Below, piece by piece: positions 12,512-29,116 of a DNA stretch of 64,000 bases. Below the pieces are notes generated by a model. The model was not told where the DNA came from. It did no database searches and saw only the letters and a list, made by a program, of their open reading frames with translations. Position 1 is the stretch's first letter; each line of letters begins with the position of its first letter. A program made the translations under genes and the position numbers. The stretch lies in NCBI RefSeq assembly GCF_053078305.1, contig NZ_CP166879.1; one strand, given 5' to 3'.

Positions 12512-13822
12512 ATGGAGTCTTTGAATCAATTTGTTAATTCGCTTGCCCCAAAATTATCGCACTGGCGACGTGATTTTCATCACTATGCAGAGTCTGGCTG
12601 GGTGGAATTCCGCACTGCCACCCTTGTTGCGGAAGAATTGCAGCAGCTCGGCTATTCACTGGCGCTGGGCCGCGAAGTAGTTAATGAAAGTAGCCGGATG
12701 GGACTACCTGATGAACTCACTCTACAACGCGAATTCGAGCGCGCTCGTCAACAGGGTGCGCTAGCACAATGGATTGCGGCTTTTGAAGGTGGTTTCACTG
12801 GTATCGTCGCCACCCTGGATACCGGTCGCCCCGGTCCGGTGATGGCTTTCCGTGTCGATATGGACGCGCTGGATCTCAGTGAAGAGCAGGATGTCAGCCA
12901 TCGCCCCTACCGCGACGGTTTTGCGTCATGTAACGCCGGAATGATGCATGCCTGTGGTCATGATGGGCATACCGCCATTGGGCTTGGGCTGGCGCATACC
13001 CTTAAACAGTTCGAGTCCGGACTACATGGCATCATCAAACTGATTTTTCAACCTGCAGAAGAAGGTACGCGTGGCGCGCGGGCGATGGTCGATGCAGGTG
13101 TAGTGGATGATGTTGATTATTTTACTGCCGTGCACATTGGCACTGGCGTACCTGCGGGCACCGTGGTGTGCGGCAGTGATAATTTTATGGCAACCACCAA
13201 ATTTGACGCGCACTTCACCGGGACCGCCGCTCACGCAGGCGCAAAACCAGAAGACGGTCACAATGCCTTGTTGGCGGCAGCACAAGCAACTCTTGCACTG
13301 CATGCAATCGCCCCGCACAGCGAAGGCGCTTCCAGAGTAAACGTGGGCGTTATGCAGGCAGGAAGCGGTCGTAATGTTGTTCCTGCCTCGGCGTTGCTGA
13401 AAGTGGAAACACGCGGGGCCAGCGACGTCATTAATCAATATGTTTTTGACCGTGCTCAGCAAGCGATTCAGGGCGCAGCAACCATGTATGGTGTCGGCGT
13501 TGAAACTCGTCTGATGGGTGCAGCTACCGCCAGTTCTCCTTCGCCGCAATGGGTCGCATGGTTGCAAAGTCAGGCGGCTCAGGTAGCGGGGGTCAATCAG
13601 GCCATTGAACGTGTTGAAGCGCCTGCGGGTTCCGAAGATGCCACATTAATGATGGCCCGCGTGCAGCAACATCAAGGGCAAGCCTCCTACATGGTGTTTG
13701 GCACACAGCTGGCGGCAGGTCATCACAACGAAAAATTCGATTTTGACGAGCAGGTTCTCGCTATTGCCGTCGAAACGCTGGCGCGCACCGCGCTCAATTT
13801 TCCCTGGACGCGAGGTATCTGA
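12512..13822 (+). CDS. abgA: p-Aminobenzoyl-glutamate hydrolase subunit A (M20 peptidase family), 436 aa
   Basis: M20 metallopeptidase motifs. Start at MESLNQ with GGGAAAGG upstream. The stop overlaps the abgB start (TGATG). Confidence 0.85.
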   Translation: MESLNQFVNSLAPKLSHWRRDFHHYAESGWVEFRTATLVAEELQQLGYSLALGREVVNESSRMGLPDELTLQREFERARQQGALAQWIAAFEGGFTGIVATLDTGRPGPVMAFRVDMDALDLSEEQDVSHRPYRDGFASCNAGMMHACGHDGHTAIGLGLAHTLKQFESGLHGIIKLIFQPAEEGTRGARAMVDAGVVDDVDYFTAVHIGTGVPAGTVVCGSDNFMATTKFDAHFTGTAAHAGAKPEDGHNALLAAAQATLALHAIAPHSEGASRVNVGVMQAGSGRNVVPASALLKVETRGASDVINQYVFDRAQQAIQGAATMYGVGVETRLMGAATASSPSPQWVAWLQSQAAQVAGVNQAIERVEAPAGSEDATLMMARVQQHQGQASYMVFGTQLAAGHHNEKFDFDEQVLAIAVETLARTALNFPWTRGI

Positions 13823-22651: not shown

Positions 22652-22987
22652 AAGTTTCCCTCTAACCGACATTAAAATTGATGCGTAATTATTTGTTTCG
22701 CCTTAAAGAAATGCAAACAACTTCCATCAAAAAAGTGACACAGGAAGCATAAAATGTTTTATGTATCAATATATTAAATCAGATTTAGTGTAAATAATAG
22801 ACGCCAAAATGCGGCAAAGCACATAGAACACCGAACACTACGTTCGGGCTTCGCACGTTCAAACCAGTTTTCGGTATCATAATCAGCATCTGTCGCCATT
22901 GTACGAAGAATAAAAAATAACCAAAACGTTGAAAGGAACTGAGAATACGTTAAGAGAAGAATTAAATTAATGTATCAGCAAGTAGTG

Positions 22988-23887
22988 CTAAACAGCACCT
23001 TTATACTTCAGCCTATCTATAAATAATGAGAATGCCGAGCCAGCATGTCGACGGTGTGGATAGTACAGGTGATAACCGGGTAAATCTGGTGTGAATTTAT
23101 CCAAAACACGTATCAGTTTTTTTTCTTTAATAGCCCGCTCAACCTGATCATAAGGTAGATACGCCAATCCATGCCCATCAATTGCAGCATCAATGATCAG
23201 GTCTATCGTATTCAGTAAAAGCTGACCTTCCATGCGAACACGAACTTCACGTCCACCGCGTATTAATCTCCAGCGATTTGCTGTACCCGATGTGGGAAGA
23301 TACAAATTAACTGCCTGATGATCTATTAATTGTGACACTGACGTTGGAACACTTCGGCGGGAAAAATAATCCGGTGAGCCAACAATAGCCATTGGTATAT
23401 CTGGCCCGATTCGAATGGCGATCATATCTTTATCCATCTCCCCACCCAGACGGACGCCTGCATCAAAACGCTCAGAAACGACATCAGTCAAACCATAATC
23501 AATGATAAGCTGAATATCAATTTCAGGGTGTGATTTCAGGAATGTGCGCATGGCTGGTAACAATATCGTTTTTGCTGCATGTTCTACAGTAGTAATACGT
23601 ATTGTCCCGGATGGGCGGTTCTGCAGATCGCTCAGGGATGCCAGGGCAGAATCTATGTCATGCAGCATAGGGCCAAGAACAGACAAAAGATGCTCGCCCG
23701 CTTCAGTAGGTACAACACTGCGCGTGGTTCGCGTCAGAAGCCGCAATCCCAATCGTTCTTCTATACGGCGCACTATCTGGCTTAATGCTGACTGCGCCAT
23801 GCTCAGGCGGGCTGCTGCGCGAGTGAAGCTACGCTCCTCTGCAACGACGACAAACGCCATCAGATCAGCGATCTCTTCACGCTTCAT
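22988..23887 (-). CDS. pgrR: LysR-family regulator PgrR (YcjZ), 299 aa
   Basis: LysR HTH (FTRAAARLSMAQSALSQIVRRIE). Divergent from ycjY. Confidence 0.85.
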   Translation of the reverse strand: MKREEIADLMAFVVVAEERSFTRAAARLSMAQSALSQIVRRIEERLGLRLLTRTTRSVVPTEAGEHLLSVLGPMLHDIDSALASLSDLQNRPSGTIRITTVEHAAKTILLPAMRTFLKSHPEIDIQLIIDYGLTDVVSERFDAGVRLGGEMDKDMIAIRIGPDIPMAIVGSPDYFSRRSVPTSVSQLIDHQAVNLYLPTSGTANRWRLIRGGREVRVRMEGQLLLNTIDLIIDAAIDGHGLAYLPYDQVERAIKEKKLIRVLDKFTPDLPGYHLYYPHRRHAGSAFSLFIDRLKYKGAV

Positions 23888-23912
23888 TTAGTATCTCCAT
23901 ACAATCTATTAA

Positions 23913-23926
23913 TCATTTAAATGATA
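23913..23926. promoter_or_regulatory. Perfect 14-bp palindrome ATCATTTAAATGAT in the pgrR/ycjY divergent promoter region; candidate operator
   Basis: The sequence is its own reverse complement. It is followed by two direct repeats of GGTCTAATCA at 23928-23937 and 23946-23955. Confidence 0.3.
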
Positions 23927-24024
23927 GGTCTAATCATGATTTTGGGTCTAATCAACTTAATGATCAATATCTATAGTGATATAACCAACCGTTAAAACGA
24001 ACCAACAACTCCATGAGGAACGGA

Positions 24025-24945
24025 ATGATGAATAATAAAGTCAGCTTCACTAACAGCAATAATCCAACCATCTCTTTGTCTGCAGTGATCTATTTTCCTC
24101 CAAAATTTGATGAAACCCGTCAATATCCGGCAATTGTGGTATCTCACCCAGGTGGGGGCGTTAAAGAACAAACGGCCGGAACTTATGCCGAAAAACTGGC
24201 GGAAAAGGGATTTGTCACTATTGCTTATGACGCATCTTATCAAGGTGAAAGTGGCGGCGAGCCGCGTCAGTTAGAAAACCCATACATTCGTACTGAAGAC
24301 ATCAGTGCCGTGATTGATTACCTGACAACGCTTTCTTATGTCGACAATACCCGAATTGGTGCGATGGGAATTTGTGCCGGTGCAGGATATACAGCCAATG
24401 CTGCAATTCAGGATCGCCGCATCAAGGCCATCGGTACCGTTAGTGCGGTCAATATTGGTTCGATGTTCCGTAATGGTTGGGAAAACAATGTGAAATCTAT
24501 TGATGCCCTGCCATACGTTGAAGCGGGTTCAAACGCCAGAACCAGCGATATTAGCAGCGGAGAATACGCCATTATGCCACTGGCACCAATGAAGGAGTCC
24601 GATGCGCCGAACGAAGAACTGCGTCAGGCCTGGGAGTATTACCACACCCCTCGCGCGCAGTATCCAACAGCACCGGGTTACGCTACTTTGCGCAGCCTTA
24701 ACCAGATTATTACCTATGATGCTTACCATATGGCGGAAGTGTACCTGACTCAGCCGACGCAGATTGTGGCGGGCAGCCAGGCAGGGAGCAAATGGATGAG
24801 TGACGACCTGTACGATCGGGCATCAAGCCAGGATAAACGCTATCACATTGTTGAAGGCGCAAACCATATGGATCTTTATGACGGCAAAGCCTATGTGGCT
24901 GAAGCAATTTCAGTATTAGCTCCGTTCTTTGAGGAAACTCTGTAA
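24025..24945 (+). CDS. ycjY: Alpha/beta hydrolase, dienelactone-hydrolase-like with a Cys nucleophile elbow, 306 aa
   Basis: G-x-C-x-G nucleophile motif (GICAGAG). Start at MMNNK with GAGGA upstream. The stop overlaps the next gene start. Confidence 0.8.
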   Translation: MMNNKVSFTNSNNPTISLSAVIYFPPKFDETRQYPAIVVSHPGGGVKEQTAGTYAEKLAEKGFVTIAYDASYQGESGGEPRQLENPYIRTEDISAVIDYLTTLSYVDNTRIGAMGICAGAGYTANAAIQDRRIKAIGTVSAVNIGSMFRNGWENNVKSIDALPYVEAGSNARTSDISSGEYAIMPLAPMKESDAPNEELRQAWEYYHTPRAQYPTAPGYATLRSLNQIITYDAYHMAEVYLTQPTQIVAGSQAGSKWMSDDLYDRASSQDKRYHIVEGANHMDLYDGKAYVAEAISVLAPFFEETL

Positions 24946-25874
24946 TGAAACATATTCAAATCCGCAATAGTGATATGGCCTGGCATATTGCTGCCAATAT
25001 TCAGTTTCCACCAAATTTTGATGAGTCAAAACAGTATCCGGCGATTATCAGCGTCCATCCTTTTGGCAGTTGTAAGGAGCAGACGTCTGGCAATATCTAT
25101 GGCAAGGCATTGGCTGAAAAAGGCTATGTCGTTCTCGCTTATGACGCCAGTTTCCAGGGAGAATCTGGTGGGGAGCCTCGTTGGATAGAAGATCCGACAC
25201 AGCGCGTAGAGGATATTAGCCGTGTTATCGATTATGCAGTAACTCTGCCATATGTTGATGCTGAACGCATTGGCGTGCTGGGTGTGTGTGGGGGGGGTGG
25301 CTATGCCATTAATGCCGCGCTGACAGAAAAACGAATTAAAGCTGTAGTGAGTATTACGGGTGTTAATATCGGGCGTCTTTTTCGGGAAGGTTTCAGCAAT
25401 TACGATCCGATTGGCGCATTGAATGCAATGGCGTCGCAACGAACCAAAGAGGCTCGTGGTGGAGAATTACAGATCAACGAATTACTTCCCGCCAGCCTGG
25501 ATGCAGCAAAAGCCCATGGACTGACCGAACGCGATGTTTATGAAGCAACTGACTACTATAAAACACCACGCGGGCAACAACCGGGAGGTGCGACAAAAAT
25601 GTTGTTCTCACATGCACAGAAAACGCTGGCCTGGGATGCCTTCGCATTTACTGAAGTGTTACTGACTCAGCCGGTGATGGTAGTAGTTGGTGAAAAAGTC
25701 GGTGCCTTCGGTGCTTATCGTGATGGACTGGAAGTCTATGGCCGGGCGATGGTTTCGCAGGATCGTCAGTTAGTTTCATTACCCGATTTCTCACATTATG
25801 AACTGTATGACAAACCGGAAGCAGTTCAGGAGGCGCTGGAAAAAGTTATTCCTTTTTTCAACACCCATCTGTGA
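24945..25874 (+). CDS. Second, tandem alpha/beta hydrolase paralogous to ycjY, 309 aa, intact
   Basis: Alignable with YcjY over its whole length (shared blocks AYDASxQGESGGEPR, EDISxVIDY, RIKA). Nucleophile motif GVCGGGG. Translationally coupled via TAATG. May correspond to the locus annotated as a remnant (ymjD) in K-12, from memory. Confidence 0.75.
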   Translation: MKHIQIRNSDMAWHIAANIQFPPNFDESKQYPAIISVHPFGSCKEQTSGNIYGKALAEKGYVVLAYDASFQGESGGEPRWIEDPTQRVEDISRVIDYAVTLPYVDAERIGVLGVCGGGGYAINAALTEKRIKAVVSITGVNIGRLFREGFSNYDPIGALNAMASQRTKEARGGELQINELLPASLDAAKAHGLTERDVYEATDYYKTPRGQQPGGATKMLFSHAQKTLAWDAFAFTEVLLTQPVMVVVGEKVGAFGAYRDGLEVYGRAMVSQDRQLVSLPDFSHYELYDKPEAVQEALEKVIPFFNTHL

Positions 25875-25894
25875 TAAGTTTCATGAGAAATATT

Positions 25895-26532
25895 ATGAAA
25901 AATGTACTCATTCTTGGTGCTGGCGGTCAGATAGCCCGCCATGTGATTAATCAACTGGCAGATAAACAAACCATTAAACAAACTTTATTTGCTCGTCAGC
26001 CAGCAAAAATACACAAACCCTATCCAACTAATAGCCAGATTATTATGGGGGATGTACTGAATCATGCAGCACTGAAGCAGGCCATGCAGGGACAGGATAT
26101 TGTGTATGCCAACCTTACGGGGGAAGATTTAGATATTCAGGCAAATTCAGTGATCGCTGCGATGAAAGCCTGTGATGTTAAACGTCTGATCTTTGTTCTT
26201 TCCCTCGGCATTTATGATGAAGTTCCAGGAAAATTTGGCGAATGGAATAATGCAGTTATTGGTGAGCCCCTAAACCATTCCGCAGGGCTGCGGATGCAAT
26301 TGAGGCTTCTGGACTGGAATATACAATTCTTCGCCCTGCCTGGCTGACGGATGAAGATATTATTGATTATGAGCTTACCTCACGCAATGAACCATTCAAA
26401 GGTACGATCGTATCACGTAAGAGTGTCGCAGCATTAATTACAGATATCATCGATAAACCTGAGAAACACATTGGTGAGAATATAGGCATCAATCAACCCG
26501 GGACTGATGGCGACAAGCCATTCTTCATGTAA
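25895..26532 (+). pseudogene. ymjC: NAD(P)-binding NmrA/SDR-like protein interrupted by a frameshift (ymjC-like)
   Basis: Rossmann motif ILGAGGQIARH. The frame runs to a stop at 26347, but a different frame continues as ...KPFRRAADAIEASGLEYTILRPAWLTDEDIIDYELT... to 26532. The shift maps to about 26265-26276 (gagcccctaaacc). Start codon uncertain (25883 or 25895). Confidence 0.55.
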
Positions 26533-26822
26533 ATCAATTATATAGCCACCATCGTACTGTACTATGTGCAGTACGATTTATTAAACTTATTAAGGTGAAC
26601 TGATCAATCAGATGCGATTAACATGTGTAGAACCAGTAAGAATAAAATACGCCATGTATATAACATTACGACAATTCTAATATCTGCACATCAATAAAAA
26701 TACAAACAACTTCCGGCAAAAAAGTGATACAAGATCGATGACATAGCGTTGAAGAAAAGGATTTGATAATCCGCAAAATTTGCACAACACTGCCTGTAAT
26801 ACTTCCTGAACCAGAGACGATC

Positions 26823-27551: not shown

Positions 27552-28501
<950 letters not shown>

Positions 28502-28609
28502 TGTTGTCGCGGTGGTCTGCGGATTAAGCGCAAATAGCGTTTGCTGTGTTATTGACAGTTAGCATAAACTAGGTGTGACGTTAACTATATGTAAACAGGA
28601 AAGATAATC

Positions 28610-29116
28610 ATGTCACAAACCGTTCATTTCCAGGGCAACCCGGTTACAGTCGCCAACTCCATCCCGCAGGCGGGTAGCAAAGCGCAGACTTTTACTCTCG
28701 TGGCAAAAGATCTGTCTGACGTCACCCTCGGTCAGTTTGCGGGTAAACGCAAAGTGCTGAACATTTTCCCGAGTATTGATACCGGTGTTTGCGCCGCATC
28801 AGTACGTAAGTTTAACCAACTGGCAACTGAGATCGACAACACCGTTGTGCTGTGTATCTCTGCCGATCTGCCGTTCGCCCAGTCTCGTTTCTGCGGCGCA
28901 GAAGGTCTGAACAACGTTATCACCCTCTCCACTTTCCGTAACGCTGAATTTCTGCAAGCCTACGGTGTGGCAATTGCTGATGGCCCACTGAAAGGTCTGG
29001 CAGCGCGTGCCGTTGTGGTTATTGATGAAAATGACAATGTGATTTTCAGCCAGCTGGTGGATGAAATCACCACCGAGCCGGATTACGAAGCAGCTCTGGC
29101 TGTACTGAAAGCATAA
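28610..29116 (+). CDS. tpx: Thiol peroxidase (atypical 2-Cys peroxiredoxin), 168 aa
   Basis: Peroxidatic Cys in [10 protein letters not shown] and resolving Cys in [10 protein letters not shown]. Confidence 0.9.

Follow-up and report, generated by a model that had tools for sequence, protein, structure and literature searches.

Genetic context of the pgrR/ycjY intergenic region

The window, i.e., the whole stretch of 64,000 nucleotides that was analyzed, carries two divergently oriented genes with one common intergenic region: pgrR, encoding a LysR-type transcriptional regulator, and ycjY, which encodes an alpha/beta hydrolase and heads the divergent operon (Table 1). Both gene names follow from near-identical annotated E. 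coli genomes together with Pfam domains, among them HTH_1 and LysR_substrate in PgrR, and the same evidence bears out the original prediction of a divergent pgrR/ycjY control region. Of 5426 complete E. coli genomes, 5242 match, with 95-99.4% identity, a 1.2-kb segment (22900-24100) that comprises pgrR, the intervening spacer and the first part of ycjY. The distance between the two genes is 137 bp (23888-24024); the open frame of ycjY begins at 24013, upstream of the gene start at 24025, and the 125 bp ahead of this frame (23888-24012) have a G+C content of 30%.

The DNA stems from a non-K-12 E. coli and differs from K-12 in that a second alpha/beta-hydrolase gene downstream of ycjY is intact. 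This gene (24945-25874) directly follows ycjY and encodes a protein of 309 amino acids that is 42% identical to YcjY. It is absent from K-12 (L015, 6681-6934), where its place is taken by no more than two tiny ORFs, ymjD and ymjC, which look like deletion remnants. Farther downstream, a short-chain dehydrogenase (SDR) gene (25895-26533) exhibits a 1-nt deletion near 26272 compared with the closest genome, that of E. coli DSM 103246, and the ORF listed at 25871-26347 stops early at this gene, its frame being truncated; the SDR gene is probably a frameshifted pseudogene or bears a sequencing error. On the other side of the regulator gene, between pgrR and mppA, the closest annotated genome indicates a 75-bp fragment of a queH (epoxyqueuosine reductase) pseudogene at approximately 22816-22890.

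Table 1. Genes, sequence elements and predicted promoters at the pgrR/ycjY locus. Positions are those of the window; invariant columns refer to the alignment of loci from different genera.
Feature	Position	Strand	Description	Invariant columns
pgrR (ycjZ)	22988-23887	-	LysR-type regulator, 299 aa; 99% identity to E. coli PgrR cluster	
pgrR leader	23888-23907			0/20
Conserved block	23908-23977		70 bp	50/70 (71%)
Site 1	23908-23926		ATTAATCATTTAAATGATA, holds palindrome ATCATTTAAATGAT; proposed primary, high-affinity PgrR dyad (contact by PgrR presumed)	18/19
Palindrome	23912-23925		ATCATTTAAATGAT	13/14
Direct repeat copy 1	23927-23936	+	GGTCTAATCA; TAATCA/ATCA part forms left half of site 2	5/10
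Site 2	23933-23946		ATCATGATTTTGGG, ATCA-N6-TGGG half-dyad, centre 21 bp from that of site 1 (role presumed)	
Direct repeat copy 2	23945-23954	+	GGTCTAATCA; ATCA forms left half of site 3; TCTAATCA nearly unchanged between genera	8/10
Site 3	23951-23964		ATCAACTTAATGAT, imperfect dyad in ATCA-N6-TGAT frame, centre 39 bp from that of site 1	
pgrR promoter candidate TAGACC-18-TATCAT	-35 23950-23945; -10 23926-23921	-	Predicted start near 23914, inside palindrome	
pgrR promoter candidate TTGATC-17-CAAAAT	-35 23967-23962; -10 23944-23939	-	Predicted start near 23932	
Putative ycjY promoter	-35 23949-23954; -10 23972-23977	+	Weak -35 TAATCA, 17-bp spacer, -10 TATAGT; predicted start near 23984	
ycjY leader	23978-24012			4/35 (11%)
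ycjY	24025-24945	+	Alpha/beta hydrolase, 306 aa; heads divergent operon	

Published information on PgrR

Binding of PgrR to the ycjY/pgrR spacer and autorepression are already known at the level of the region and are also recorded in regulatory databases. Genomic SELEX placed the ycjY/ycjZ spacer among the loci bound by PgrR, formerly YcjZ (PMC5934670), and the regulon listed in this paper and in PMC4797297 consists of ycjG, ycjXF-tyrR and ycjY-ymjDC-mpaA. In supplementary data 6 of PMC10505187, the pgrR promoter has a DAP-seq fold enrichment of 5632; in the same column, LacI reaches 4413 at lacZYA and NanR 2883 at nanA. Negative autoregulation of pgrR was confirmed in a tunable-regulator strain, in agreement with a known PgrR site in the pgrR promoter (PMC10505187), and knock-down of pgrR resulted in a log2 fold change of 0.97 for the pgrR promoter on glucose (PMC10505187 supplementary data). 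RegulonDB, EcoCyc and review papers mentioning PgrR give no sequence for the site.

For ycjY, the sign of regulation by PgrR is listed as negative (PMC10505187 supplementary data), and log2 fold changes of +0.60, +0.28 and +0.34, none of which was scored significant, were recorded for its promoter under pgrR knock-down (PMC10505187). A listed effect of this sign and an increase that is slight and in no case significant lend no support to the activation site that had been envisaged in the original prediction.

A palindrome and three dyads in a common frame

The sequence ATCATTTAAATGAT is a perfect 14-bp palindrome. It had been recognized correctly in the original prediction, which had placed it at 23913-23926, one base to the right of its true position (Table 1). 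Likewise, the two copies of GGTCTAATCA said to follow the palindrome at a spacing of 18 bp were recovered exactly so, counted from start to start, and the 10-mer is present exactly twice. Further elements had not been listed before, namely the half-dyad of site 2, the imperfect dyad of site 3 and a long imperfect inverted repeat in which 23907-23925 and 23951-23969 are 79% complementary. Three copies of the hexamer TAATCA lie on the plus strand (23910, 23931 and 23949, i.e., with spacings of 21 and 18 bp), and each copy starts an element of the form ATCA-N6-TGxx, the centres of which lie at 23918.5, 23939.5 and 23957.5. Site 2 contains the mini-palindrome ATCATGAT (23933-23940), and site 3 overlaps the -35 region and the spacer of the putative ycjY promoter.

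At the scale of the window, neither the palindrome nor the repeat is special. Four perfect 14-bp palindromes are present in the 64 kb versus 5.3 expected from dinucleotide-preserving shuffles, and a single 10-mer is repeated within 30 bp where shuffles of the same kind yield 1.6. Within the 125-bp spacer, the shuffles assign a probability of 0.017 to a 14-bp palindrome and of 0.005 to a 10-mer repeated within 30 bp, and the two features arose jointly in 8 out of 100,000 cases. Judged at both scales, the sequence statistics are therefore suggestive, though short of decisive. The dyad ATCA-N6-TGAT is found seven times in the window compared with 1.4 times expected by shuffling, and two of these seven matches fall into the spacer. 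The other five exact matches start at 13031, 19818, 24301, 35052 and 45304, and the one at 24301-24314 resides inside ycjY. Two other reported PgrR targets, ycjG and mppA, are located within the window; neither an ATCA-N6-TGAT dyad nor a close match to site 1 was detected upstream of ycjG/tpx (28493-28610) or of mppA (22673-22987).

RNA-level identities were also considered for the palindrome and rejected. A search of Rfam yielded no match at E <= 1, no terminator-like site lies on the palindrome, and a functional RNA hairpin was dismissed in view of a weak fold (-12.8 kcal/mol, z = -2.25) outside both predicted transcripts.

Conservation of the spacer across genera

A scan with one genome per species provided 11 usable loci encoding PgrR relatives: one from another Escherichia (98% identity), nine with 84-88% identity, originating from Citrobacter, Kluyvera, Pseudocitrobacter, Shimwellia, three Serratia and one metagenome-assembled genome, and one encoding a 57% identical orthologue (L010). 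The footprint alignment was built from 10 distinct loci representing six or more genera, many of which are mutually close, such that they amount to fewer than 10 independent lineages. According to this alignment, the 43 bp originally flagged are the core of a conserved control region of about 70 bp, both sides of which are bordered by diverged mRNA leaders (Table 1). The palindrome is the best-conserved part of the block, and its sole change is a central one (TTTAAA to TTGAAA) in one locus. At the ycjY-proximal end, none of the 12 sequences departs from CTATAGT (23971-23977), and directly behind it conservation breaks off. Among the protein matches listed, PgrR relatives share at least 87% identity and come with the same putative operator.

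The direct repeat fares differently. In most other genera copy 1 reads AGTCCAATCA, with GTCCAA in the place of GTCTAA. The perfect 10-bp repeat is therefore a peculiarity of Escherichia, and what is conserved of it is the core GTC-N-AATCA. The earlier notion of a perfect GGTCTAATCA direct repeat as the relevant element finds no support in this form, and it seems preferable to regard the two copies as TAATCA left half-sites that belong to two weaker ATCA-N6-TGxx dyads. The perfect repeat would then be a lineage-specific coincidence overlying conserved half-sites, and the previous reading is corrected in this respect. In site 2, ATCA and TTTTGGG are in large part kept across genera, and site 3 combines an invariant left half with a right half that varies (TAAT, TGAT, TGGT).

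The distribution of conserved positions also bears on the question of which element PgrR would mainly address. According to one alternative, the TAATCA/GGTCTAATCA repeats, i.e., sites 2 and 3, are the main target and the palindrome is kept as a promoter or leader element of pgrR or as the site of another protein. The almost invariant TCTAATCA of copy 2 fits this idea, as does the location of the repeats between both promoters, where one bound protein could act on both, and the binding data, being resolved to the region, do not separate the sites. However, the palindrome is both the best-conserved and the sole perfectly symmetric element, which suits a dimeric winged-helix reader, copy 1 differs between genera, and the 18-bp spacing does not correspond to an integral number of helical turns. 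We therefore regard the repeats as an unlikely main target.

The most distant locus deserves separate mention. In L010, the gene for the 57% identical PgrR orthologue is divergent from a gene for a protein with 74% identity to YcjY, and the spacer is different. It contains a perfect 14-bp palindrome of its own, TTGTTAATTAACAA (L010 3949-3962), at a distance of 41 bp upstream from the ATG of the regulator gene. In geometry this palindrome matches the E. coli site, in sequence it differs.

Variation within E. coli

None of the sampled divergent E. coli genomes shows a change in the palindrome or in either repeat. Compared with the window, the K-12 spacer carries four substitutions, all of them outside the conserved block. 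In two of the divergent strains sampled, the sole differences are at 23938 and 23943, which lie between the repeats and within site 2. In one strain, E. coli ETEC4077 (L016), these substitutions convert ATCATGAT into ATCATAAT and TTTTGGG into TTTAGGG, and pgrR is a pseudogene with an internal stop. The change from TTTTGGG to TTTAGGG is shared by an E. coli B derivative in which pgrR is intact. E. coli ET358 (L018, 2501-2640) has a natural deletion of approximately 300 bp that corresponds to window positions 23929-24242. It joins TCTAATCA (23929-23936) to the similar TCTTATCA within ycjY (24235-24242) and removes repeat copy 2 and site 3 together with the putative promoter and the 5' end of ycjY, leaving pgrR and the palindrome intact.

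Promoter candidates on both strands

Two candidate promoters for pgrR, both conserved, were obtained on the minus strand. TAGACC-18-TATCAT was found by a consensus scan and is conserved in most orthologues, and TTGAT[CT]-17-CAAAAT, which reads TTGATC in the window, is the best-scoring candidate of this strand in a position-weight-matrix scan and is conserved in 10 of 12 sequences. Relative to the predicted pgrR start, the palindrome would lie over -10/+1 if the former is used or at about +7 to +20 if it is the latter. With TATAGT as the -10 element of ycjY, the predicted sites 1, 2 and 3 would be centred at about -65.5, -44.5 and -26.5. In LysR-type operators, the recognition site is classically centred near -65 of the target promoter and the weaker activation site or sites near -35, and the predicted centres would correspond to these classical positions.

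An earlier study had predicted TAGACC-18-TATCAT for pgrR and ATGATA-19-TCTAAT for ycjY in the pgrR/ycjY spacer (PMC3946193). All positions relative to +1 rest on predicted hexamers because no start site is mapped within the spacer in the supplement of Kim et al. (2012); the Cappable-seq, SMRT-Cappable-seq, sigma-E tagRNA-seq and Conway 2014 supplements contain no entry for the pgrR/ycjY locus. Kim et al. (2012) assigned to ycjY a start that lies antisense within pgrR (K-12 U00096.2 position 1390556) and implies a 667-nt leader. It maps to 23346 on the plus strand of the window (region 23296-23346 within pgrR). The same authors reported a start for mppA inside pgrR, 489 nt upstream of mppA.

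Conservation alone cannot part operator bases from promoter hexamers because the whole block is conserved. In a second alternative, the block is maintained solely as overlapping core promoters, the palindrome and the repeats are AT-rich by-products, and PgrR binds diffusely. Every conserved segment can indeed be assigned to some candidate hexamer, the 14-bp palindrome and the local 10-mer repeat stay within chance at the scale of the window, and most of the other PgrR SELEX targets in PMC5934670 are AT-rich (e.g., leuO, rfaL and yjgL). Promoter hexamers, however, need neither 19 consecutive invariant bases nor dyad symmetry, and the joint probability of palindrome and repeat in the spacer is as low as 8e-5. 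Furthermore, the 5632-fold enrichment given in PMC10505187 indicates one highly specific site rather than diffuse AT-binding, and the locus of a distant orthologue carries a 14-bp palindrome of its own in the corresponding position. Taken together, this renders the core-promoter explanation quite improbable.

Nucleoid-associated proteins and alternative sigma factors

The TAATCA elements could also be bound by IHF or H-NS, and the divergent promoters would then be shaped by a nucleoid-associated protein. The IHF core WATCAANNNNTTR is matched three times with one mismatch, at 23907, 23932 and 23950, in a spacer with 30% G+C, and knock-down of hns raised the ycjY promoter by a log2 fold change of 0.88, in a row flagged with ChIP-exo binding evidence (PMC10505187). 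On the other hand, exact matches to WATCAANNNNTTR number zero in the spacer and one-mismatch matches number 90 in the window, and the three in question follow directly from the ATCA repeats. An origin in IHF or H-NS binding, which would leave the co-travel of the element with pgrR across genera unexplained, is thus very unlikely.

Sigma-E promoters consist of a GGAACTT-like -35 element and, after about 16 bp, a -10 element resembling TCTGA or TCTAA, and GTCTAA, contained in each repeat, resembles this -10 consensus. That GTCTAA acts as a sigma-E -10 element is nevertheless highly improbable: an RpoE-holoenzyme SELEX peak (intensity 17.2, with an RpoH peak of 4.4) has been reported on the spacer, and pgrR and ycjY have been called known RpoE-dependent promoters (PMC5493296), but CTATTAA and ATAGGTC instead of a GGAACTT-like -35 are found 16 bp upstream of TCTAA at 23929 and 23947, copy 1 contains GTCCAA in other genera, and a sigma-E promoter was rejected on the grounds that no canonical -35/-10 pair was found in the spacer.

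A probable composite PgrR operator

Against this background, we consider it rather probable that 23908-23977 constitutes a composite LysR-type PgrR operator common to the divergent pgrR and ycjY promoters. Several lines of evidence point to this conclusion. The footprint extends over 70 bp with a nearly invariant palindrome; this element travels together with the regulator gene, pgrR and ycjY being divergent in all 11 loci; ATCA-N6-TGAT is enriched, with two copies in the spacer next to the threefold TAATCA; palindrome and repeats are unchanged in the sampled E. coli; and the distant L010 locus has a palindrome of its own. In addition, binding of the region in SELEX and DAP-seq as well as autoregulation are published, both conserved pgrR promoter candidates overlap or precede the palindrome as judged from predicted hexamers, and the sites assume the centres given above if TATAGT is the -10 element of ycjY. 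Among the observations to be counted against the model, the dyad is of the type T-N10-A and hence one base below the classical box, ycjY responds weakly to PgrR knock-down, and no similar dyad was found upstream of ycjG and mppA.

Of the original prediction of a PgrR site, the part that sees a candidate site in the palindrome is supported. By its conservation, its overlap with both candidate pgrR promoters, the published binding of the region and the published autorepression, the palindrome ranks first among the candidates for a primary PgrR site. The part in which the repeats had served as an activation site is not upheld.

The following mechanism can be proposed for the composite operator. 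Of the two pairs of DNA-binding domains in a PgrR tetramer, one would bind the ATCA-N6-TGAT palindrome of site 1 as the high-affinity dyad, and the other would bind one of the weaker dyads, site 2 or site 3. Occupation of site 1 would cover the -10/+1 or the early transcribed region of pgrR, which would account for the published negative autoregulation, and occupation of site 3 would cover the -35 region and spacer of the weak ycjY promoter, which would account for the published repression of the operon from ycjY to mpaA. A "sliding dimer" behaviour is known from other LysR-type regulators. By analogy, and as speculation, a ligand-induced compact form might land on site 2, which lies two helical turns away from site 1, and the move to this site might free or activate the ycjY promoter. 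The sequence anatomy and the conservation are shown here, binding of the region and autorepression in the literature; the bases contacted by PgrR, both start sites and any move from site 3 to site 2 in response to a ligand are inferred. What the composite operator adds is a model at nucleotide level, with one perfect and two degenerate ATCA-N6-TGAT dyads whose half-sites are individually mutable.

The pgrR-ycjY cassette and its possible meaning

When the loci were compared (L002-L012 and proteins P0008-P0120), pgrR proved to be divergent from a ycjY orthologue in 11 of 11 cases, usually followed by a second alpha/beta-hydrolase gene. Within this set, mppA, mpaA and ycjG adjoin pgrR-ycjY only in Escherichia. 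Cassettes of pgrR and ycjY, in part with the second hydrolase gene, occur at 84-89% protein identity in Klebsiella, Raoultella, Enterobacter, Citrobacter, Salmonella, Kluyvera, Pantoea and Serratia. One cassette record is annotated as plasmid-borne, and six E. coli matches are on plasmids. The occurrence across genera together with the plasmid copies suggests that the cassette has spread horizontally. The putative operator travels with the pgrR-ycjY hydrolase cassette and the peptidoglycan-recycling genes do not, which bears on what PgrR senses.

A more far-reaching and tentative idea, which we think possible but would not expect to prove correct, is that PgrR is a classical ligand-switched LysR-type regulator instead of a plain repressor, and that its ancestral and primary target is the operon of ycjY, second hydrolase and short-chain dehydrogenase genes, and not peptidoglycan recycling as such. 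With three in-frame ATCA-N6-TGxx dyads, PgrR holding sites 1 and 3 would repress both promoters, and a ligand might cause it to slide to sites 1 and 2, which are 21 bp apart, and thereby to activate the ycjY promoter with its weak -35 element. If this were true, the link to mpaA, ycjG and mppA would be an Escherichia-specific outcome of gene adjacency. Only two modest points are added to published knowledge, namely the model with three dyads and the mobility of the cassette.

Comparison with LysR-type operators and with the published PgrR regulon

Well-known examples of LysR-type operators are sites 1-3 of BenM at benA, the operators of AtzR, CbnR and OxyR, and the nod-box of NodD (ATC-N9-GAT); the classical LysR-type box is T-N11-A. 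In divergent promoter regions, such operators combine a recognition site at about -65 with activation sites, as is reported in the reviews by Schell (1993) and by Maddocks and Oyston (2008). The pgrR/ycjY spacer resembles these operators in several respects. Regulator and target form a divergent pair, one strong dyad and weaker dyads in the same frame are assembled within about 57 bp, and the strong dyad overlaps the regulator's own promoter as defined by predicted hexamers, negative autoregulation being published. Moreover, the sites would lie near -65, -45 and -27 with the predicted -10 element of ycjY, and the dyad arms read ATC...GAT as in the NodD nod-box. A clear difference is that the pgrR/ycjY palindrome shows dyad symmetry without a T-N11-A recognition core: the 14-bp dyad is T-N10-A instead (T23913 to A23924; ATC-N8-GAT). 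In contrast to other LysR-type systems, PgrR has been reported solely as a repressor.

The published PgrR regulon of K-12 (Shimada, Yamazaki and Ishihama 2013, Genes Cells 18:123; cited in PMC5934670, PMC4797297 and PMC10505187) involves the same regulator, the same spacer and the same direction of effect, that is, repression of pgrR and of ycjY-ymjDC-mpaA. The spacer of the window differs from that of K-12 in the four substitutions outside the conserved block.
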